From assembly GCF_009931435.1 (NCBI RefSeq), contig NZ_CP043414.1: 64,000 nucleotides of DNA. One strand, given 5' to 3'. Shown here piece after piece: positions 17,309 through 44,558 of the stretch (positions are counted from its first letter, which is position 1; each line of letters begins with the position of its first letter). The notes beneath the pieces were generated by a model. The model was not told the origin of the DNA and searched no databases. It saw only the letters and a program-made list of their open reading frames with translations. The translations under genes were made by a program, and so were the position numbers. This DNA is from Escherichia coli (GTDB lineage Bacteria > Pseudomonadota > Gammaproteobacteria > Enterobacterales > Enterobacteriaceae).

Positions 17309-17833
17309 TCAAGCTTGTTGGTTCCACGGCATCTTATCTAACAACCTTGCCATCCCACAAAAACCGCTAATTCCTGCAAACAGTAACCCGGCACCAACAA
17401 AGCCGCTTAATAAGAAGAAACCGCTATTTACGGTATAACCCAGTACAACACCGATTAATATTAAACCACCCGCGGCGATCTGCACCTGGCGCATTAACGG
17501 CAAGGGTTGAGATTTATTTACCGCTACTGGCAATCCTGCTTTTTTCCAGCCATCAATCCCATCTTCGAGTAAAAAGATTTCTGCGGGTGCGGCAATCGCT
17601 GCTAATTTATCGGCGTTATTACTGGTGCGTTTACCTGCCTGGCAGTGGAAGATAATTTGCTCACGACGTAATTTAGCCGGAAGACCTGACTGTTCGAGCA
17701 CAGATAATGGAGCCAGATCTGCTTCAGGAATATGTTCACGAAGATATTCATCAGCATCACGAATATCGATTAACTTTGCGCCGCGTGCGATTAATTCTTG
17801 TGCATCATGCGGCGAAATGGTTGTCAAAGCCAT
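17309..17833 (-). CDS. ygaP: Membrane-anchored rhodanese YgaP
   Basis: 174 aa, rhodanese active-site region FHCQAGKR plus C-terminal TM helices. Confidence 0.85.
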
Positions 17834-35800: not shown

Positions 35801-37396
35801 TTAATGACGCCACGGGATAATGTTACGCCAGTTAAACTTGAAGGGGGGGGCCGGATTACCGATAGCGCGACATTAACTATCGGAAATGGCGTCGATACGA
35901 CGCTTGCCGACCTGACGGCTGCCAGCCGGGGCAGTGTCTGGCTTAACAGCAATAATTCCTGTGCAGGCACCAGCAACTGCGAATATAGAGTAAACAGTTT
36001 GCTCCTCAACGACGGTGATGTTTATTTATCAGCACAAACAGCAGCGCCTGCCACAACTAACGGTATCTACAATACGCTGACCACCAGTGAACTTTCCGGC
36101 AGCGGTAATTTCTACCTGCATACCAACGTTGCAGGCTCCCGGGGCGATCAACTGGTCGTCAACAACAACGCCACTGGCAATTTTAACATCTTTGTTCAGG
36201 ATACCGGCGTCAGCCCTCAGTCTGACGACGCGATGACGCTGGTGAAAACAGGGGGAGGGGATGCTTCGTTTACGCTGGGTAATACCGGCGGTTTCGTTGA
36301 TCTTGGGACCTATGAGTATGTCCTGAAAAGCGACGGCAACAGCAACTGGAACCTGACCAATGATGTCAAACCCAACCCGGCCCCCAACCCAAATCCGAAA
36401 CCGGATCCAAAACCAGACCCAAAACCGGATCCGAAACCAGACCCGACTCCCGATCCAACGCCGACACCCGTCCCGGAGAAACGCATCACGCCTTCTACGG
36501 CAGCCGTACTCAATATGGCAGCAACATTACCGTTGGTCTTTGATGCTGAGCTAAACAGTATTCGCGAGCGGTTGAACATAATGAAAGCGAGTCCACACAA
36601 CAATAATGTCTGGGGGACGACGTATAACACCCGTAATAATGTCACCACCGATGCGGGTGCCGGGTTTGAGCAGACGCTGACCGGAATGACGGTGGGGATC
36701 GATAGCCGTAATGGTATTCCTGAGGGGATTGCTACGCTGGGCGCTTTTATGGGTTATTCCCATTCACATATCGGTTTTGATCGTGGAGGACATGGCAGTG
36801 TGGGCAGTTATTCTCTGGGGGGCTATGTCAGCTGGGAACATGAAAGTGGTTTCTATCTGGACGGTATCGTGAAGCTGAACCGCTTTGAAAGTAACGTAGC
36901 CGGTAAAATGAGCAGCGGTGGAGCCGCCAACGGCAGTTATCGCAGCAACGGGCTGGGCGGTCACATTGAAACCGGGATGCGATTTACCGATGGTAACTGG
37001 AACCTGACGCCGTATGCATCGTTAACGGGGTTCACCGCTGATAACCCCGAATATCATTTATCCAATGGTATGGAATCGAAATCAGTCGATACCCGCAGTA
37101 TATATCGTGAACTGGGCGCAACGCTGAGTTACAACATGCGTCTGGGGAACGGCATGGAAGTTGAGCCGTGGCTGAAGGCGGCTGTGCGCAAAGAATTTGT
37201 CGATGATAACCGGGTGAAAGTGAATAATGACGGTAATTTTGTCAATGATTTGTCGGGCAGACGTGGAATATACCAGGCAGGTATTAAAGCCTCATTCAGC
37301 AGTTCGTTAAGCGGGCATCTCGGGGTGGGGTATAGCCATGGTGCCGGTGTGGAATCCCCGTGGAACGCGGTGGCTGGTGTGAACTGGTCGTTCTGA
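32822..37396 (+). CDS. ypjA: AIDA-I-type autotransporter adhesin YpjA
   Basis: ORF 32735..37396; start placed at MNRTSRYYFRRSVLSLLISALIYAPPGMA signal peptide after GAGG RBS; repetitive passenger, Pro-rich linker, C-terminal beta-barrel ending ...NWSF. Confidence 0.85.
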   Translation: MNRTSRYYFRRSVLSLLISALIYAPPGMAAFTSNVIGVVNDETVDGVQKVDERGTTNNTHIINHGRQDVYGGVSNRSLIESGGYQDVGGHNNFVGQANNTTINGGRQTIHDGGISTGTIIESGNQDVYTGGISNGTTIKGGNSHISGGTANGTIIDGGSQRVTTQGHVDSTTINKSGSQDITQGSLATNTTINGGRQYVEQSTVETTTIKNGGEQRVYESYALDTTIEGGTQSLNNKSTAKYTQIYSGGTQIVDYTSTSDVIEIYSGGVLDVSGGTATNVTQHDGVILKTNTNGTTVSGTNSEGAFSIHNHVADNVLLENGGHLDINAYGSANKTIIKDKGTMSVLTNAKADATRIDNGGVMDVAGNATNTIINGGTQNINNHGIATGTNINSGTQNIKSGGKADTTNISSGSRQVVEKDGTATGSNISAGGSLIVYTGGIAHGVNQETGSALVANTGAGTDIEGYNKLSHFTITGGEANYVVLENTGELTVVAKTTAKNTTVDAGGKLIVQKEAKTDTTRLNNGGVLEVQDGGEAKHVEQQSGGALIASTTSGTLIEGTNSFGDAFYIRNSEAKNVVLENAGSLTVVTGSRAVDTIINANGKMDVYGKDVGTVLNSAGTQTIYASATSDKANIKGGKQTVYGLATEANIESGEQIVDGGSTDKTHIKGGTQTVQNYGKAINTDIVSGLQQIMANGTAEGSIINGGSQVVNEGGLAENSVLNDGGTLDVREKGSATGIQQSSQGALVATTRATRVTGTRADGVAFSIEQDAANNILLANGGVLTVESDTTSAKTQVNAGGREIVKTKATATGTMLTGGEQIVEGVANETTINDGGIQTVSANGEAVKTTINEGGTLTVNDNGKATDIIQNSGAALQTSTANGIEISGTHQYGTFSIAGNLATNVLLENGGNLLVLAGTEARDSTVGNGGAMQNLGQDFATKVNSGGQYTLGRSKDEFQALARAEDLQVAGGTAIVYAGTLADASVSGATGSLSLMTPRDNVTPVKLEGGGRITDSATLTIGNGVDTTLADLTAASRGSVWLNSNNSCAGTSNCEYRVNSLLLNDGDVYLSAQTAAPATTNGIYNTLTTSELSGSGNFYLHTNVAGSRGDQLVVNNNATGNFNIFVQDTGVSPQSDDAMTLVKTGGGDASFTLGNTGGFVDLGTYEYVLKSDGNSNWNLTNDVKPNPAPNPNPKPDPKPDPKPDPKPDPTPDPTPTPVPEKRITPSTAAVLNMAATLPLVFDAELNSIRERLNIMKASPHNNNVWGTTYNTRNNVTTDAGAGFEQTLTGMTVGIDSRNGIPEGIATLGAFMGYSHSHIGFDRGGHGSVGSYSLGGYVSWEHESGFYLDGIVKLNRFESNVAGKMSSGGAANGSYRSNGLGGHIETGMRFTDGNWNLTPYASLTGFTADNPEYHLSNGMESKSVDTRSIYRELGATLSYNMRLGNGMEVEPWLKAAVRKEFVDDNRVKVNNDGNFVNDLSGRRGIYQAGIKASFSSSLSGHLGVGYSHGAGVESPWNAVAGVNWSF

Positions 37397-37406
37397 CCAT
37401 CAACGA

Positions 37407-37430
37407 AAAAGCCCACATCTGTGGGCTTTC
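37407..37430 (+). terminator. Rho-independent terminator after ypjA
   Basis: aaaaagcccacatctgtgggctttc: 6 bp GC-rich stem, 4 nt loop, T-rich tail. Confidence 0.7.
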
Positions 37431-38146
37431 ATATCACCAGGAGCCGCGGCTCCTTTGCGTATCCTTTTATGTCTCCTCACCGTCTGGTCGGTGTCTTGCT
37501 GAGACTTCTAACTTCCTGTTTTTGTTGGTGTTGTCCTTGTACCGTCCAATCATGATGCTGGCGTCTCTGTAATTAGTTATGTAATAACATGATAAATAAA
37601 TGGTTATTTGATTTAATAATAATTTAGGGTGCTAAAAAGGAACCATTAAATCTAAACTATCTGGTATTGCCGCATTTCTTATCAACCATATGATGGGCAA
37701 GATAGCACAACCATCAGTTCAGCTACCATCAGGGAGTTGAATTCAAAGTCATCACAACAAAACCCTCTCTGTTTGCTATAAACGAGATGAAGATTGGTAT
37801 TGCCACCACTACCGTATCAATCAGGGCGAAAGGTTGAGCTAAAGAGGGTAAAGCTCGACCTCACGTCTTAGAAAATGCTGTCCTTCAAACATGATTAGTG
37901 CAGAATTTAAACTGATTACTCGTAATGCCCTAATAAATATGAATATTTTAAAATAGGTTAAAACAGCCAAACTTATAGCACTTTTTGCTAAAGTCCTTAA
38001 AGCCTCGTCCTGTCACCTCATCCACGCTGCTCTTCGCCATCTGTGTAAAAAATGCTCAATAACGAAATAATTCCGGCAAAGCAGGTGTTGATTGTCATAC
38101 GCGATATTCGAATAATAACTCCATCAAAACAACAATGGAGAAATAT

Positions 38147-38347
38147 ATGGCAGTAAGAAGATTTATTCGTTTACCTGAAGTTATCAACAGAACTGGCTAT
38201 GGCAAAACATGGATTTATCACCTTATCAAGCGGGGTGAATTCCCTGAACCTATAAAGACTGGTGCAAGAACAATAGCATTTATTGAAAGTGAGATTGATG
38301 AATGGATTGAAGCTATTATTCGAAACTCACGCCAGAACGCAGCATAA
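38147..38347 (+). CDS. alpA: AlpA-family (excisionase-like) transcriptional regulator
   Basis: FIRLPEVINRTGYGKTWIYHLIKRGEFPEPIKTGARTIAFIESEIDEWIEA matches AlpA/phage regulatory HTH pattern. Confidence 0.8.
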   Translation: MAVRRFIRLPEVINRTGYGKTWIYHLIKRGEFPEPIKTGARTIAFIESEIDEWIEAIIRNSRQNAA

Positions 38348-38416
38348 AAACAGAAATAGGATCTCGTGTCGAACAGATATCTGTTCGCTCAGGGAATCTT
38401 ATTACCCTAAACAATA

Positions 38417-38719
38417 ATGGAGAAGAGTATGAAGATAGAACTTATTACGACAAAACAGTTTATTGAACAAGCCGAATGTTATTTCAGGAACTATATAGAC
38501 GGATTGCGGAGGAATGCACCAGATGATTTTTATTATTTTCTCAACAATAAATACAATATGAATGACATTATGGAAAGTATCATTAAAAAAACGAGATATC
38601 ATTTTTATGATGACACAGAAGAAGGTAAAAGGAATCGGATTTATGGAGAAGTAAGCCACAGTAAGGTAAAGCAACACCTTCGTCAGCTTTGGATTGTCTA
38701 TAAATGTGTATACCGCTAA
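38417..38719 (+). CDS. Hypothetical protein
   Basis: 100 aa ORF downstream of alpA, same strand; no recognisable motif. Confidence 0.4.
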   Translation: MEKSMKIELITTKQFIEQAECYFRNYIDGLRRNAPDDFYYFLNNKYNMNDIMESIIKKTRYHFYDDTEEGKRNRIYGEVSHSKVKQHLRQLWIVYKCVYR

Positions 38720-38771
38720 TACTTATACAAATATTTTGCTATTCCAATATTAAACTAAATAGGAAATAAAA

Positions 38772-39068
38772 ATGAATACATTTAAAAATAAATCTACTGA
38801 AATCTTTTATGTTGTGTCCTTGCATATCTACGCGGAGCTTTTTAACTCAAAGGATAAAACGACCAGCAATATGATTATAACGCATGTAATGGATCATGAG
38901 TTTGTCTGTAGGCTAATCGATCTGGCGATGAGAAATGCTGAGAAGCATCTTCTGAAAAAAGCATGGAAAAAGAACGCTGCTGAAAAACTGTCTGAGGTGG
39001 ATTTTAAAGGGGTTAAGCAGGCATTAGCTAAAATGCATTACACTGTTCTGGCGGAATCAATATGTTGA
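38772..39068 (+). CDS. Hypothetical protein
   Basis: 98 aa ORF, same strand as alpA cluster; no recognisable motif. Confidence 0.4.
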   Translation: MNTFKNKSTEIFYVVSLHIYAELFNSKDKTTSNMIITHVMDHEFVCRLIDLAMRNAEKHLLKKAWKKNAAEKLSEVDFKGVKQALAKMHYTVLAESIC

Positions 39069-39116
39069 TATGTTCTGACGTCTATCGGCCCCTTCTTGGG
39101 GCTGATAATCGGATGA

Positions 39117-39599
39117 TTAAGGTGCTATTCTGCGGCGAGCTTTGTTTTGCTGCTGTTCAATGGTTGAGGCTATGGTCGATAGTTGCTCAAGACTCTGTTC
39201 AATTGAACGCTGGAACGCAACAGCGGCTTCAGTACGTTGTTTTATGACCAAGGCTACTATTTCTTCATCGCTCTTTTCTGAAATGGCCTTACGGTATAAT
39301 ACGCGTTCGTTAAATAAATCGAGATTACCAGTTGGTCTCGCTGATGTATTAGCTTTTGAACTGCTGATGGGATTTAACTCGTCAATAAAGTATTCAATAA
39401 GAGATTCTCTCTTCTTTTCAAGTCTGCGAAGTTCGGTATGTGCAGATTTAAATTTCTGAGCCTTAACTAATGGAATATCATCGGAACGCAGTTTGCGATA
39501 TTCATTTCTGTATTCTTCTATCGAAATATGATTTTATAGTTCTTTGACTGTATTTACACATTCGATTAAATCACTGTTGTCTGTTTTTACTTTTCTCAT
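39117..39599 (-). pseudogene. Hypothetical gene interrupted by an in-frame TAA (codon 22)
   Basis: Minus-strand frame ATG at 39599 reads MRKVKTDNSDLIECVNTVKEL-stop then 138 further sense codons with no Met or stop until 39117. Confidence 0.35.
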
Positions 39600-39753
39600 A
39601 AGAAATACCTCGTAAATAAAATGGTTGATATATTTATATTACGAGATATGGTGTTAGTGTCAAATTAGCTCTTTAGCTCTCTTGGCAAGAAAATACCTTT
39701 AATGCAATCGTAGTTTATTACGGTGATTTTTTTAACCTGTTTCCCGCTGGTAA

Positions 39754-40311
39754 TTAATTTTTATTATTCACTGGTTTCTTTTTTTCCTTCAAGTAATAAG
39801 TTTTCATGAAAGTCAAACGATCACCATTAAACATATAGTCTGGATTAATAAAATAATAGTTTTGTATCATGGTCTCAGCAATAAATTTCTTGTCAGCAAG
39901 TTCTTTCATCCCTTTGAAATATGTCGTTCTTGATATTTTTACAATCTCTTGATCAACAATATCGAATGACATTAATATCGTATCTGTATCTTTATTGTCT
40001 CTAATAGCAAGATACAGTATCTTAAATACTTTCTTACCTGATGAGGATAAACCCTCAATAGCTGATACGCCATCCACATAAAGTTTCACGAACTGTGTCT
40101 TGTCTACTTCCATTGACTGAAAGAAACCACCATGTCCAACCTGTTCTCCTGTATTTTCATTTACTACGGCTAAGCGATCTTTTCCTGTTGTGATACGTCT
40201 GATACCTGTTTTTGTATGTATATTTGTATCATTAAGGAATGGGTTTTTTACATGGCGAGGTAGACCTCTTCTTGATTTCTTTACTTCCGTTTGTATTTTA
40301 TTTTCTATCAT
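39754..40311 (-). CDS. Hypothetical protein, possibly DNA-binding or replication-associated
   Basis: 185 aa basic ORF adjacent to a highly structured repeat-containing intergenic region; function not recognisable by eye. Confidence 0.5.
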   Translation of the reverse strand: MIENKIQTEVKKSRRGLPRHVKNPFLNDTNIHTKTGIRRITTGKDRLAVVNENTGEQVGHGGFFQSMEVDKTQFVKLYVDGVSAIEGLSSSGKKVFKILYLAIRDNKDTDTILMSFDIVDQEIVKISRTTYFKGMKELADKKFIAETMIQNYYFINPDYMFNGDRLTFMKTYYLKEKKKPVNNKN

Positions 40312-40721
40312 GATATTTACTCCTTTATTTTTTTAGTTATACATTTAAGTAAATACTATATTTTGTGTGCAAGTCAATACTTAAAATTTATATTTTTTAA
40401 AATAACTAACACTTGATGTTTTTACGTATAAAACTTGTAGTGCTACAGAATATATACAAATAACACTTTATTATTTTTATTTGAGAATAGTTATCAACTT
40501 AAGTACCGGGATTCGGGACTTTAACTCCCGAGAGTGCGTACTTTGTTTTAAGCTATAGCTGGCTTGAGAGCAGTTTTCTTCTTCATTATTCAAATAGCGA
40601 AGCTTTGGATGACATTTTAAAGAATGTAATATTGAAAATAGTTCTTCTTTTTAGTTTATTGGTGCCTTATCAAAATGGCACCAGTGGTGTTATCTGTTTT
40701 ATTTTTCCGACTATGTTATTA

Positions 40722-40758
40722 CAGCGAAGTGATTGTGTGGAACAATCACGAATCGCTG
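40722..40758. repeat. 37 bp near-palindromic element copy 1 (CAGCG-AA-GTGATTGT-N5-ACAATCAC-GAAT-CGCTG)
   Basis: Read directly; perfect 8 bp inner inverted repeat plus outer 5 bp arms. Confidence 0.7.
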
Positions 40759-40860
40759 CTTTTATTGTGAGAGCTTAATTAATTTTTCTTTTACTTTATA
40801 TGCGTCTTCGACGCGATCTTTTTTTGGATAAATCCATCATTAACAGGGGCAAGCCCTGTC

Positions 40861-40897
40861 CAGCAAAGTGATTGTCGGCAACAATCACGAAATGCTG
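40861..40897. repeat. 37 bp near-palindromic element copy 2 (CAGCA-AA-GTGATTGT-N5-ACAATCAC-GAAA-TGCTG)
   Basis: Same architecture as copy 1; outer arms changed on both sides so pairing is preserved. Confidence 0.7.
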
Positions 40898-41227
40898 CTA
40901 CTAAAGATATAGTTTTCCTATACGTTTAAGAGCAAATGCTATATGTCAGATGGGGAATGCTATGTTTAAACATAGGATCTGAATTAAAAGTTAAAAGGAA
41001 AATAGATCTAACTATGTTCGAATACATTCGCTTATTACCTCATAGTAGTAAAATAAAATACAAAATGTCAGTTTTAGGGCGTAGCCGTGCGTAAGCATAG
41101 AGATAAATATCTTTTCAAAAAGAAGTTTAAAAATAATAAGTAAAAGCATGAAGAAAACACAGATATATTTGATTTTTACGCTTACGATAGAGTATTAAGC
41201 AGTAATAAATAAAAAAGGGAAAACACA

Positions 41228-41497
41228 ATGAACAATATCAAAATGATTACGCTCTTCTATCCCCATGAAAAAACACCATTTATGATCTGTATTGTAAACA
41301 AAGTAGAAGATACAGAACTTGGATTGAAATTAACTCTTGAAAACGGCAACAACATTTGTGTCAATAATTATAGTCATTATCTGTTATCAGAGTCTGTAAA
41401 TCGTTGTAATAAAGAAAGGTTAAAGAGTATTTATATTCGCTTGGTTTCAGAACTCACGCAGATGAGTGAAGAAACTATAAAATCGCAGATGTTTTAA
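41228..41497 (+). CDS. Hypothetical protein
   Basis: 89 aa ORF, first of four co-oriented genes. Confidence 0.45.
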   Translation: MNNIKMITLFYPHEKTPFMICIVNKVEDTELGLKLTLENGNNICVNNYSHYLLSESVNRCNKERLKSIYIRLVSELTQMSEETIKSQMF

Positions 41498-41579
41498 AAG
41501 TTATATTGAACATAATAAATATTTTTGATATTACGGTCAGTTGCATGGTATTAAATAAAAGAATAACAGGAAAAATATC

Positions 41580-41984
41580 ATGCGAAAAATAAAAACAAAA
41601 ATCTACTTGCCTACAGCTTTAACAGGAAACATGGATAAACACTATATCCCTGTTCTAGAGGATTTAAGAAAAGCGATATACAGCGACAGAATGTTATCAA
41701 GGCTTGCAGATAACGGTAGTATTGTTATCCATAGTTCAGTTGGGTATCCGGTTGCTAAATACAAAAACACGGGGATTAGCATAGGTATAGAACCATTGAA
41801 TCCAATGATAAGACAAGATCTGACTCTTGGATATATCGTGGTCGTCAGAAACGGGAAATCATCACAGGAGATTAATGGTTTACTTAACAGGTCATTGCCA
41901 AAAGCAATAAGCACTTTTAAGGATCACATCAATGAATATGAAGCAGTAAAAAGTAAAATGCGACAACAAACTATGATCTGGTAA
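41580..41984 (+). CDS. Hypothetical protein
   Basis: 134 aa ORF, 82 bp after preceding gene. Confidence 0.5.
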   Translation: MRKIKTKIYLPTALTGNMDKHYIPVLEDLRKAIYSDRMLSRLADNGSIVIHSSVGYPVAKYKNTGISIGIEPLNPMIRQDLTLGYIVVVRNGKSSQEINGLLNRSLPKAISTFKDHINEYEAVKSKMRQQTMIW

Positions 41985-42021
41985 AATATTTAATCTGATA
42001 ACTTCAGGAGGAGGATGAGCG

Positions 42022-43005
42022 ATGGAAGGTAAGTTAATTTTTTGTTCCGATGCAATACTACGGTTTCAGTCCGATTACGATGAAACCGCTGCCGTTCCAT
42101 TGCTATCCATCCAGAACGTCATAGCCGATACCGATCCGTTCTTTCTTCTCCGTTTCTTCCACCATACCGTTCTGATTGAAGAAGGAACAACGCTGGCAAG
42201 TATCTTTCTGGCAATAGAACCGTGGAAGGCTTTGTTAGCGGCTTATCTGGACAGAGATGTTGGTGCTTATATAGATGAGGTAAGAAAACCGTCCGGGCCA
42301 ACGACATGGGATATTGAATGGATTGGGATTGATCGTCGTAGCATGGTTTACCGCGCTTATAAACGTCAGGAGATGCAGGATGGAGAGGATTTTTCTGACT
42401 ATTTAAACCGGGAACGCGTTCTGACCGATGAATTTGAAATTGAAAGTGGCTGTGAGGCTTCTGGCTACATTAAAGGTGATAAAGAACGCTGGAGCATCAG
42501 TGGTGATGTTCACGAGATAAAGAATCTGCCTGTAATCCTCTATAGCAAACAGACATTGATGACTTCACCGAAAGACGGTTTGCTGAAGAAAAACGTATCG
42601 GGTGTGAAGAGTTCCAAGCACAGTTGCTTCGTTTATGGCGATACCTCGTTTTCATTGAGAGAGGTTATGGAAGCCATCTACATTAGCGGGCTGTTCTTCT
42701 ATGCGCCAAGAGACGCCGCCAGTAGTCTTGATGCGCTGAAAGCGAGTGTGGCTGGACTGGAAGACGAACTGACCGAGGTGCCTGAAACAGAATCGGATAA
42801 TAATGAAACAGATGAAGAACCTACCATCGTCGTAGCCGACGGTGCTTTTGATTCGCTCGCTGCTCACATGGAGTCTGAAAAAGCGGAGTGGCAATACATT
42901 AAGAAGTTGTGCCAGCAAGATAGCGAGCTGCCCATACGTATTGGTAGTATCAGAATAGCTGAGCCTGCGGAGCTATGTATTGGCGGGAAAATCTTACATG
43001 AATAG
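42022..43005 (+). CDS. Hypothetical protein with acidic C-terminal segment
   Basis: 327 aa ORF, 37 bp after preceding gene; locally higher GC than neighbours. Confidence 0.55.
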   Translation: MEGKLIFCSDAILRFQSDYDETAAVPLLSIQNVIADTDPFFLLRFFHHTVLIEEGTTLASIFLAIEPWKALLAAYLDRDVGAYIDEVRKPSGPTTWDIEWIGIDRRSMVYRAYKRQEMQDGEDFSDYLNRERVLTDEFEIESGCEASGYIKGDKERWSISGDVHEIKNLPVILYSKQTLMTSPKDGLLKKNVSGVKSSKHSCFVYGDTSFSLREVMEAIYISGLFFYAPRDAASSLDALKASVAGLEDELTEVPETESDNNETDEEPTIVVADGAFDSLAAHMESEKAEWQYIKKLCQQDSELPIRIGSIRIAEPAELCIGGKILHE

Positions 43006-43171
43006 GTACAGGCAACAGTTAGCATTGTGGTGAAAGGATATGGTGTATGTTTGCTCACTTTTTTGTGTTATCTCCTGATCAACCCTATGTCGACTATGGT
43101 AAAATTCCCAACTTTAACACCAACGTAGCAAGTGTTTTATGAGCGCGTAGTCAACCAGTAAGGACATTGAA

Positions 43172-44089
43172 TTGAACATTAACGCAACACCAGTATTAAT
43201 TACACTTGTCTACGAAGCGCTTTTAAGATCCTTTTGGCGTAAACCCGCACTCAAAAAATTTTTGTTATCGTCGCATATTTCTGAAAGCTTCATTTCAACT
43301 TGGAGAGAAGATGAATCAAAAAGAAATTTTTTAGATCGTTTGTTCCCTAAATTACAAAGTAGTGCAAAAGGAAAAAATGTTATCTGCCATATGGCAGTTA
43401 ATCTTTCTGAACAGACTTCTTTTCCTGATTTAAAAGGCTGGGAAGATTCTCTACAAATGATTCAATCTGCAACTGATGCCATAAAAGATTTAAAAAACTA
43501 TATAACAAAACAAAATGAAGAACATCAGACTGAAAAAGAAAAACAAGAGTTCAGAGCACGAGCAGAAAAAGAGAGAACTGAAATAAAACGCTCTGAGACG
43601 GATTTGATGAAATTAAAGAATGAATTTGAGTGTTTGCATAATGAAATAGGAACTCAAAATGGTGGCTACGCATTTGAAAAGTGGTTTTTTAAACTTGTAG
43701 ACTACTGTGAAATTGTCTGTAAAAAACCATATAAAACTAATGGTAGGCAAGTAGATGGAGCCATAACTATTGAAGGCACTACGTACCTTGTTGAATTAAA
43801 ATTTCAGAAAACACAGGCTGACGCCATCGACATCGACTCATTAAAAGCTAAAGTGAGTAAAATGGCTGATAACACGATGGCTGTAATGATTTCTGTATCA
43901 GGTTATTCCTCTGTTGCCATAACTGAATCATCGGGTAGTCGAACCCCTTTATTATTATTAGATTATAGCCATTTATATTTATTCTTGAGTGGTGGAATGA
44001 GATTTGATGAAATAATTACACGGATAAGACGCCATTCTTCACAAACAGGAGAATCTTACCTATCTGTAAATTCATTTGGTGGATTTTAA
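43172..44089 (+). CDS. Protein with C-terminal PD-(D/E)xK (Mrr-like) nuclease motif
   Basis: 305 aa; GGYAFEKWFFKLVDYCEIV...VDGAITIEGTTYLVELKFQK fits E...D...(E)xK restriction-endonuclease-fold signature; N-terminal region with coiled-coil-like stretch. Confidence 0.55.
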   Translation: MNINATPVLITLVYEALLRSFWRKPALKKFLLSSHISESFISTWREDESKRNFLDRLFPKLQSSAKGKNVICHMAVNLSEQTSFPDLKGWEDSLQMIQSATDAIKDLKNYITKQNEEHQTEKEKQEFRARAEKERTEIKRSETDLMKLKNEFECLHNEIGTQNGGYAFEKWFFKLVDYCEIVCKKPYKTNGRQVDGAITIEGTTYLVELKFQKTQADAIDIDSLKAKVSKMADNTMAVMISVSGYSSVAITESSGSRTPLLLLDYSHLYLFLSGGMRFDEIITRIRRHSSQTGESYLSVNSFGGF

Positions 44090-44149
44090 ATAAACAATAA
44101 TGCTGTATGAAGTAATCTCAGCATTATTGTTTCCAATAATTAATGTTGG

Positions 44150-44527
44150 TTAATCCATCAAGCCGCGTGAAGTCTTACTTGCAGTATGACGAAAATCATA
44201 ACGTTCCACAACATCACCCTTAAACCAGATATCCAGTGATTTAATATGTGCTGTGCTGCTATTGGTCAACAGAGCAAGGCCCGGTATGTAGTTAGATAGC
44301 TGGCTTTCTCCCGTCATACTTGAGTAGTTCCACATCTCCTGTCCATCATTCGTAGCGCGTGTCTGAGGCTCTCCAAAGGCAGCAAGAATTTCTTGTTGGG
44401 TTGTTTTTCCATTGACGATTTTAACTTTAACCGTCTGATGATTTTCATCAGTTAGGGATTTATTACCATGAACGGTACAGCCACTAAGTGGTAATATGAT
44501 AAAAATAGCAAATAACAATTTTTTCAT
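44150..44527 (-). CDS. Lipoprotein, BamE/OmlA-like pattern
   Basis: ORF 44150..44569; start at MKKLLFAIFIILPLSGC (lipobox); G.T.QQ...G.P pattern resembling SmpA/OmlA fold. Confidence 0.55.
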   Translation of the reverse strand: MKKLLFAIFIILPLSGCTVHGNKSLTDENHQTVKVKIVNGKTTQQEILAAFGEPQTRATNDGQEMWNYSSMTGESQLSNYIPGLALLTNSSTAHIKSLDIWFKGDVVERYDFRHTASKTSRGLMD

Positions 44528-44558
44528 TTTAGTTCCATAAATAGATGATAGATGAGAC

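Follow-up and report, generated by a model that had tools for sequence, protein, structure and literature searches.

A repeated hairpin module in the long spacer of ROD21-like islands, a possible signal for second-strand synthesis

We analysed a window of 64,000 nucleotides (nt) from Escherichia coli (contig NZ_CP043414.1) and, within it, a long intergenic spacer (positions 40312-41227) that harbors two 37 bp palindromes, referred to here as c1 and c2. The spacer is bordered by the gene of a RepL-like protein of 185 residues and by a divergent open reading frame (ORF) of 89 residues, and belongs to a low-G+C island that extends from about position 29 kb of the window up to the tmRNA gene. The flank at 57000-61000 is 99.4% identical to the ssrA-smpB-recN region of many E. 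coli strains. Genes of the island follow the order AlpA, small ORFs, (H-NS, DUF4756), RepL, long spacer, cargo, mobQ, traD, type IV pilus and integrase, the TraD annotation being seen in relatives of the window island. At the DNA level, the serU islands of Nissle, 536 and other strains share 80-94% identity with the window island. As it combines a P4-type integrase at the tmRNA gene with an AlpA-type factor, a MOBQ relaxase with a TraD-like gene, and a homolog of SEN1990 with a long non-coding spacer, the island is assigned by its gene content to the published Enterobacteriaceae-associated ROD21-like (EARL) family (PMC6035254, PMC8844411, PMC10763509). EARL islands carry virulence and defence genes and include ROD21 of Salmonella Enteritidis, ICEKp258.2 of Klebsiella ST258, and the tcpC (serU) island of uropathogenic E. 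coli and Nissle.

The 185-residue protein had been described as uncharacterised in the original prediction, which was made from the sequence of the window. It is a homolog of the partly characterised SEN1990 of ROD21, and its homologs are named "replication/maintenance protein RepL" by PGAP, although its Pfam RepL match is weak. SEN1990 is a predicted winged-helix protein whose gene is preceded by a long non-coding spacer, and its deletion left the copy number, amount and maintenance of excised ROD21 unchanged in assays performed without a helper plasmid (PMC10655114). The same authors speculate that the origin of transfer (oriT) of ROD21 may sit in the spacer next to SEN1990. The published accounts of the EARL family consulted here name no oriT and describe no repeated element in the spacer, of which only the length is remarked upon.

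Table 1. Positions of the genes, hairpins and motifs discussed in the text, in window coordinates. HP, hairpin.
Feature	Position	Strand	Description
AlpA-like ORF	38135-38347		AlpA-type recombination directionality factor
RepL-like gene	39754-40311	-	185-residue winged-helix protein, homolog of ROD21 SEN1990; Pfam RepL E = 1.9e-5, and PGAP
Conserved block adjoining RepL	40500-40605		includes GGGACTTTAACTCCCGAG and AAGCTATAGCTGGCTTGAGAGCAGTTTTC; kept even in islands without the hairpin module (Izhakiella L007, L179)
Hairpin GGTGCC-N10-GGCACC, then a T-rich run	40661-40682	+	upstream edge of the core; conserved in Klebsiella L009
c1 (HP-b1)	40722-40758	+	CAGCG-AA-GTGATTGT-GTGGA-ACAATCAC-GAAT-CGCTG; asymmetric internal loop, AA vs GAAT; 39.6 bits
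HP-t	40802-40814	+	GCGTC-TTC-GACGC; G+C-rich; T run at 40819-40825; resembles an intrinsic terminator
Palindrome TGGATAAATCCA	40825-40836		nearly invariant: invariant in A1, at least 90% conserved in A3
HP-a	40843-40859	+	ACAGGG-GCAAG-CCCTGT; directly 5' of c2; stem covaries, loop free
c2 (HP-b2)	40861-40897	+	CAGCA-AA-GTGATTGT-CGGCA-ACAATCAC-GAAA-TGCTG; conserved 3' tail GAAATGCTGCT
HP-c (possible)	40908-40922	+	TATAG-TTTTC-CTATA in the conserved block GATATAGTTTTCCTATACGTTTAAGAGCAAATGCTATATG; weak, mostly T.G wobbles, one compensated pair
Motif AGGGCGTAGCCGTGCG	41076-41091	+	could form mini-hairpins GGC-GTA-GCC and TGC-GTAA-GCA
89-residue ORF (MNNIKMITLF...)	41228-41497	+	divergent; usual right-hand neighbour, about 330 nt past c2
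mobQ	47283-48764	-	MobQ-family relaxase; NF041496, 249.7 bits vs cut-off 200
oriT candidate	48883-48912	+	ACACTGC-GTA-GCAGTGT, then A, then TAGGTGGGCATT; about 120 nt upstream of mobQ
P4-type integrase	55625-56854		NF007246, 450.8 bits vs cut-off 434; adjoins the tmRNA gene
tmRNA gene (ssrA)	57019-57381		island insertion site

Both palindromes were found where they had been predicted and have in common the inner palindrome GTGATTGT-N5-ACAATCAC, for which the 64 kb contain exactly two matches against 0.02 expected by chance. A covariance model run over the whole window with filters off retrieved c1 and c2 only, the full module with c2 (40821-40901) scoring 102.8 bits and c1 39.6 bits on the + strand, with 22 and 21 bits on the - strand. 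Each 37 bp element folds into a bulged hairpin (HP-b) on either strand. The outer arms had been read as having changed jointly with complementarity kept. The difference is real, but it amounts to a single polymorphic pair with frequent mismatched intermediates: among 93 distinct copies from many islands, the pair that is G-C in c1 and A-T in c2 of the window is G-C in 25, A-T in 45, A.C in 11, G.T in 4 and something else in 8, being mostly G-C in c1 and mostly A-T in c2. Alone, this pair is weak evidence; stronger covariation is found elsewhere in the module. The spacing between c1 and c2 is close to 139 bp nearly everywhere (range 130 to 164 bp). In Klebsiella both are trailed by TTTTCCTATACGTT, and c1 and c2 therefore look like an old tandem duplication.

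We aligned 19 homologous spacers from E. coli, Klebsiella, Cedecea, Pluralibacter and uncultured sources. The best-conserved part is a core of about 240 bp (40715-40950), where column identity is 0.85-0.93 compared with 0.55-0.75 in the flanks. This core comprises at least five hairpins, arranged in the order HP-b1, an AT-rich stretch (40765-40800), HP-t, the palindrome TGGATAAATCCA, HP-a, HP-b2 and a block with the possible HP-c. The core, taken as 261 nt, outperforms each of 200 shuffles in folding, whichever strand is considered (DNA z-scores -3.5 and -4.2). A small hairpin that had been pointed out near 40852 is real and corresponds to HP-a. Its stem occurs in at least six versions with free loops, variants including CGGAG/CTCC, TAGGG/CCCTA, CAGGA/TCCTG, CAGTGC/GCACTG and ACAGG/CCTGT. 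HP-t switches between GCGTC/GACGC and GCGGC/GCCGC, pair 112/119 being U-A in 10 sequences and G-C in 4. For HP-c, RNAalifold favours an alternative long-range pairing.

Pairing is conserved throughout this core. In 16 full cores, 97.5% of the cells are paired and five pairs have changed on both sides (three in HP-a, one each in HP-t and HP-c), while the inner arms of the 37 bp element are the same in all 16. In 80 distinct c2 modules, 98.1% of the cells are paired and both-side changes affect six pairs, in 19 cells compared with 1.5 in shuffles; within HP-a they affect 4 of 5 pairs. Values as high were reached in none of 500 shuffles of these sequences, which are related by descent, and pairing fell to 28-61% when the partner columns were slid. 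Intrastrand pairing is firmly under selection. Inner arms do vary on rare occasions, in a compensated manner: position 7 changes from G-C to A-T (GTGATTAT/ATAATCAC), the closing pair from T-A to C-G and position 1 from G-C to A-T. Invariance of AGC, TGAT, ATCA and GCT holds by construction, as these were fixed in the regular expression that collected the 93 HP-b copies. The position 7 variant resides together with canonical copies in the same island at two loci (L065 and L099), which argues for intrastrand pairing over a symmetric site that co-evolves with one island-specific dimeric protein. The suggestion that a hairpin or a symmetric protein-binding site is under selection thus stands in its first half, and the second half, at least with a single dimer, is disfavoured.

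The mismatches in these stems bear on the nature of the paired strand. The 93 distinct HP-b copies contain 43 non-Watson-Crick cells, which on the + strand read as 11 G.T, 18 A.C (equivalent to G.T on the - strand) and 14 others. G.U pairs are not preferred on either strand, although they should dominate on the strand of an RNA under selection; the pattern thus looks like unselected single hits on a DNA hairpin and points to DNA rather than RNA. Wobble pairs had appeared to assign a strand in a small early sample, but the bias was gone in the larger one. A search of Rfam with the region 37000-45000 gave no match at E <= 1. The T run after c1 is not conserved, c2 has no T run, and HP-t alone is terminator-like; a known structured RNA or an intrinsic terminator was rejected as the identity of the 37 bp element, which lacks an Rfam match and a conserved U tract. 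In ROD21, the subject of the sole RNA-seq report for the EARL family, transcription in the spacer is low (PMC10655114). A structured RNA, one of the functions originally considered, thus finds no backing in the Rfam search, the mismatches or the RNA-seq signal of the family.

Control at the level of transcription is more broadly conceivable. The module might be an operator or promoter-proximal element, a 5'-untranslated structure for rightward genes (the operon of the 89-residue ORF, traD), or the source of a small RNA that runs from c1 to the HP-t terminator. We consider this possible but doubtful. Module clusters lie in divergent intergenic regions: by a crude calling of ORFs of at least 100 residues, the right neighbour is co-oriented in 74 of the 92 classified cases (about 80%) and the left neighbour divergent in 88 of 97 (91%). 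The L021 copy and the Klebsiella L009 copy stand 61 to about 105 nt ahead of a start codon, and the L043 module precedes a RepL-like gene that points the same way. HP-t and the T run behind it resemble a terminator on the + strand, many c1 loops end in T to give TACAAT, which resembles a -10 box, and SEN1991 was slightly, though non-significantly, up in a SEN1990 mutant (PMC10655114). However, a convergent gene turns its 3' end towards at least 18 of the clusters, as in L099, where c1-c2-c2' abut the end of mobQ, and in L134 and L138, where the compensated variant lies 26 nt from a convergent stop codon. No promoter-like site was found on the + strand of 40312-41227. The compensated variant beside canonical copies is difficult to reconcile with a single dimeric regulator, and the missing Rfam match, the absence of a G.U preference, the unconserved T run after c1 and the low spacer transcription all count against an RNA-based form of control.

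The hairpin module is confined to one family of mobilizable enterobacterial islands, the ROD21-like islands. Among 5426 complete E. coli genomes, the c2 module was found in 726, at 1036 places that give a median of one per genome; plasmids contributed none. A phage collection and the true plasmids of PLSDB are devoid of the module, the sole plasmid matches being chromosome-like records or an island copy in a Klebsiella plasmid. With no plasmid similar to it, the module is not an imitation of the oriT of a helper plasmid. Scans of viral contigs, with a pattern that fixed the inner arms, and of metagenomic contigs, with one that fixed TGGATAAATCCA, CAGC and GTGA, yielded clearly more than 100 additional loci. 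All family copies read together with their surroundings (about a dozen loci) sit in a related island, and the remaining pattern matches in the contig scans are chance matches in unrelated coding sequence. REP, BIME and ERIC elements are also short imperfect intergenic palindromes, but REP-type elements have hundreds of copies in the core genome, whereas the present element is restricted to one island family and occurs nowhere else in the window. A generic REP- or ERIC-like repeat is thus ruled out by the two copies in 64 kb, the presence in 726 of 5426 genomes and the related islands around all examined copies, and the island-specific character supposed at the outset holds up in other genomes.

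A functionless or selfish miniature palindromic repeat, spread within the island family and kept by descent, would be compatible with the 1 to 6 copies seen per locus (127 loci) and with the decay of some extra copies, such as copy 3 of L004 with three mismatches and the L011 copy at 17338 with two. A function is, moreover, so far only deduced from sequence. Such a repeat is nevertheless very unlikely. It does not account for the identity of the core relative to its flanks across six genera, for the compensated changes, or for the strictly uniform orientation, and the module takes up the same two kinds of position in different islands while being absent from the rest of the chromosome.

The orientation of the module is firmly tied to the transfer genes. 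None of the 127 loci has copies in mixed orientation, and all 60 copies in mobQ-carrying loci lie on the strand opposite mobQ. Relative to RepL, 78 are opposite and 18 have the same orientation. Modules are present in six of the seven loci fetched via MobQ, always opposite mobQ, and the seventh locus ends before the RepL region. Most loci that cover the RepL-like gene have one cluster adjoining that gene. Eight extra copies are located 664-799 nt upstream of the mobQ start, just 3' of a putative nick, whereas c1 and c2 of the window lie 8 kb away from that start codon.

The putative nick belongs to an inverted repeat upstream of mobQ (Table 1) that is probably the primary oriT of the island family, as judged by its layout. 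MOBQ oriTs have an inverted repeat followed about 8 nt later by a nick core TAAGTGCG|CCCT, and this element is closer to them in layout and conservation than the palindromes are; MOBQ nick consensus patterns alone were uninformative as an island scan, with many chance matches. The inverted repeat covaries across islands, with five arm sequences (for example ACACTGC/GCAGTGT, GCATTAC/GTAATGC, ACACTC/GAGTGT and CTCAC/GTGAG) and a loop that is often GAA. The nick-like region TA(A/G)GTGGGCATTG is invariant even beside relaxases that are about 40% identical, and at 8-9 of 12 positions the candidate agrees with the consensus published for MOBQ, TAAGTGCGCCCT (PMC3832669). If nicking proceeds as at oriTs of the RSF1010 type, it is the + strand of the window that would be cut and transferred. 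The module, an inverted repeat followed by a tail, reads on the same strand as this candidate, an inverted repeat followed by the nick region.

It is therefore highly improbable that the palindromes are themselves the primary oriT, a role suggested for the spacer both in the original prediction and for ROD21, where low spacer transcription was accompanied by the oriT speculation (PMC10655114). Their inverted repeat and tail are MOBQ-like in layout, but the better candidate, with the covarying repeat and invariant nick region of a textbook MOBQ-type oriT, is the one about 120 nt from mobQ, and the palindromes of the window are 8 kb away. Some relation of the element to transfer or replication remains the most likely reading.

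One such relation would be that of a secondary MobQ relaxase site, or pseudo-oriT, in which the inner repeat and the following tail, (T/G)AAGTGCTGCT, mimic a MOBQ oriT, so that the relaxase could bind, terminate or recombine there, with possible turnover of cargo. As in the MOBQ oriTs of RSF1010 and R1162 (consensus NWACCNNTAAGTGCGCCCTYNN), the inverted repeat is followed directly by a conserved tail, here (T/G)AAGTGC, in the polarity of the island oriT, and all copies are direct repeats that share this polarity (PMC3832669). TAAGTG is common to the module tail and the island nick region, and duplicated module sets flank cargo in L011, L037 and L029. Compared with the 17-position MOBQ consensus WACCNNTAAGTGCGCCCTY (PMC3832669), the family consensus of c2 has 11 matches, the Klebsiella-type c2 has 13, and both c1 and c2 of the window have 10; in the window, 10 matches are reached at 0.56% of the positions, 11 at 0.12% and 13 at 0.002%, and 711 positions equal or exceed the window copies. 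The resemblance was noticed after the fact and is suggestive only. The putative nick would fall within the outer stem, where the tail pairs with the left flank, and the tails of c1 (GAA[C/T/G]CGCTGCT) match less well. A real oriT is also under different constraints: the inverted repeat by mobQ is free to covary, whereas the frozen HP-b arms stay the same even where the relaxases are about 40% identical, and are present in several copies per island. Finally, the L011 sets come from different lineages and look like accretion or homologous recombination rather than site-specific exchange. A secondary relaxase site thus appears unlikely.

The relation of the module to the RepL-like gene was considered in the same manner. 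RepL-like proteins found by the module are of three very different types, with 19-35% identity to the window protein and with differences in the predicted recognition helix as well, and the HP-b arms are firmly independent of these types, being identical even at 19% identity. Conversely, the loci L007 (Izhakiella) and L179 encode RepL proteins 67-68% identical to that of the window, yet the module is absent and other repeats are found instead. These are two or three iteron-like direct repeats TTTCTTCGGGTTTGT (L007, 2600-2700, and the L179 spacer) and a different palindrome, GATTGAGC-N6-GCTCAATC. The module is also absent from metagenomic contigs of 2.3-4.8 kb (L048-L056) whose one Rep candidate is a RepL-like homolog of about 50% identity. 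One of them, L056, has a 141 nt terminal overlap, hence a circle of about 3.5 kb, and carries only a RepL-like gene, a Mob_Pre relaxase and two small ORFs. These contigs suggest that the RepL-like family includes genuine plasmid replication initiators in metagenomes of Gram-negative type. The RepL-like protein is thus plausibly a real Rep, with the palindromes, from this distribution, not its specific binding sites. A RepL-specific operator or iteron was rejected, because the arms do not track the Rep type and are absent both beside a 67-68% identical RepL and on the small RepL plasmids. A scan of the genome collection with the RepL protein gave six loci only, and no solved structure matched this protein in sequence. 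Among the known sites of CRP, Fur, LexA, FNR, LacI/GalR-type and GntR-type regulators, MatP, SlmA, dif and IHF, none appears to fit the palindrome in spacing.

A RepL-dependent vegetative origin (oriV), fired by the RepL-like protein after excision, would be made up of the palindromes, the AT-rich spacer between them and a DnaA-box-like site. The - strand reads TTATCCAAA at 40823-40831, which agrees at 8 of 9 positions with what we take to be the DnaA-box consensus. A cluster adjoins a RepL-like gene, of one of the three types, in most loci that cover one, and small circular plasmids have no Rep candidate other than RepL-like homologs. The arrangement recalls iteron origins (pSC101, R6K; the PIME oriV, bioRxiv 10.64898/2026.01.12.698999) in its position beside a rep-like gene, its presumptive DnaA-box-like site and its AT-rich stretch. 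Other mobilizable islands replicate only with a helper (bioRxiv 10.64898/2026.01.12.698999), so the negative result for ROD21 is not decisive. But an iteron array would need at least three direct repeats, and the spacer offers just two palindromes at a distance of 139 bp, whose sequence does not track the Rep type. Additional copies are found upstream of mobQ, a long way from any repL, and orientation follows mobQ rather than repL. Together with the small RepL-like plasmids that lack the element and the neutral SEN1990 deletion (PMC10655114), this makes an oriV distinctly unlikely, and the earlier proposal of an origin or operator for the adjoining 185-residue protein loses its footing.

We tentatively favour another explanation, in which the hairpin module may be a priming signal for second-strand synthesis, resembling a single-strand origin (sso) and recognised by host proteins that are conserved. 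Taken more broadly, an element that works on the transferred strand in its single-stranded form, a group to which a secondary relaxase site would also belong, has slightly less than an even chance. The MobQ relaxase would nick the oriT by mobQ, and the + strand would be displaced and transferred. On this strand the module would fold into a row of hairpins (HP-b1, HP-t, a mini-hairpin, HP-a, HP-b2 and HP-c), which conserved host replication proteins may take as the start signal for synthesis of the complementary strand, in the manner of an sso or ssi. Replication driven by RepL might use the same signal wherever it has a single-stranded intermediate. Single-stranded DNA is the most plausible active form, because the arms, short and bulged as they are, would in our judgement not give stable cruciforms in double-stranded DNA; in this element, single strands arise in the course of mobilisation or of replication of the rolling-circle type. 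That the arms are invariant across divergent RepL proteins and relaxases fits recognition by a conserved host factor.

Several imperfect hairpins with conserved pairing, in a fixed orientation relative to the presumed transferred strand, are what is expected of an sso or ssi. The sso1 of ICEBs1 is about 200 bp long, has three stem-loops, is orientation-specific and lies beside the relaxase gene, and a second, redundant region serves as backup (PMC4595007). The module similarly resembles the sso of ICEBs1, pTA1060 and pBAA1 as a non-coding segment of about 200 bp with several short stem-loops, specific in orientation and close to relaxase and replication genes, and the 1-6 copies of EARL islands recall the redundancy of ICEBs1. 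It differs in having no sequence similarity to known sso, a Gram-negative host and inner arms that are far more constrained in sequence, and its activity is read here from sequence alone. Frpo-type and ssi elements (leading regions of F and IncI1 plasmids; ssiA and ssiB of RSF1010) are, like the module, hairpins repeated in intergenic DNA that all point the same way with respect to oriT, and they work on the strand that is transferred or displaced. An Frpo element is one long hairpin of about 300 nt that rebuilds a -35/-10 promoter, and ssiA and ssiB are found on opposite strands and depend on a primase of the plasmid itself. The module is instead a string of short hairpins, and no primase was seen in the island.

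Several points weigh against a second-strand priming signal. The module has no sequence likeness to any known sso or ssi, nor to the plasmid and phage collections. The palindromes fold equally well on both strands, so that the active strand is deduced only from the asymmetry of the flanks and the polarity of oriT, and the nick polarity itself is derived by analogy with RSF1010-type oriTs. The shuffle statistics overstate the independence of the sequences. The placement of the clusters, about 80% upstream of a co-oriented gene and 91% with a divergent left neighbour, would also be expected for promoters or operators, and HP-t with its T run resembles an intrinsic terminator, which is sensible only for RNA; these two features keep an RNA or promoter reading alive. 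In addition, the 8 bp inner arms are almost invariant, beyond the needs of a purely structural hairpin.

Either role, second-strand origin or secondary relaxase site, would if true explain how non-self-transmissible islands become established in new hosts, and would provide a sequence marker for related elements. To our knowledge it would, if a single-strand origin, be the first defined for a Gram-negative integrative mobilizable element. It is rather improbable that EARL islands carry a dedicated, repeated second-strand origin read by host proteins on the incoming strand or, more radically, that the modules are secondary substrates of MobQ, an HUH-family nuclease, which would cut and rejoin at several hairpins. 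In the latter case, cargo to the right of the modules might be exchanged by the relaxase in an integron-like manner. What can now be put to the test is the hairpin module, as the best-preserved non-coding sequence of the family, the well-supported and separate oriT candidate by mobQ, and the distinctness of the two from the RepL-like gene.

Several other features of the spacer are conserved. The block adjoining RepL (Table 1) is probably the repL promoter, an operator or a Rep site. It is faintly like the region upstream of repL on small plasmids and therefore a candidate RepL operator or origin, and a promoter-like site is present on the - strand at 40497-40470. The motif AGGGCGTAGCCGTGCG is found 160-196 nt past c2 in nearly all islands, and 54 nt past it in L043. 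Its likeness to the RfaH ops/JUMPStart element is only loose, the core differing by a deletion and an insertion, and that reading was dropped. It also loosely resembles the reverse complement of the MOBQ nick core but does not fit. A 52-residue ORF (40936-41094) that ends in this motif is not conserved as coding sequence, unit 1 of L037 having a frame-shifting extra G. In the spacer between mobQ and traD, two further G+C-rich hairpins, GCCC-GTAA-GGGC (49065-49076) and CCCGCC-GTAA-GGCGGG (49096-49111), are conserved in the Klebsiella island.

In E. coli SCU-485 (L011, 16690-20070), two c1-c2 sets from different island lineages flank an insert of three genes, for a hypothetical protein, an AAA ATPase and an HNH endonuclease, which looks like a defence system. 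From this arrangement, the spacer appears to be a hotspot for the accretion of cargo or islands. Cassette exchange at integron attC-like sites was rejected as an explanation, as the element has no GTTRRRY/RYYYAAC cores, the sole integrase is of the P4 type and the L011 sets come from two lineages. The cargo region of relatives includes TIR, SIR2, NACHT and macro-domain genes, and the window island encodes an autotransporter of 1553 residues (32735-37396). The ssrA-borne variant of the island (29000-57400) has no close match in the 5426 complete E. coli genomes, where the best match to the tested stretch of 38.0-48.8 kb is 94% identical over 86% of it. EARL-like islands can also ride on plasmids, as indicated by the Klebsiella pneumoniae plasmid pINF177.2 (L009), in which a complete EARL-like module, from DUF6387 and AlpA through the RepL-like gene, mobQ and traD, is contained within a 310 kb IncFIB/IncHI1B conjugative plasmid.

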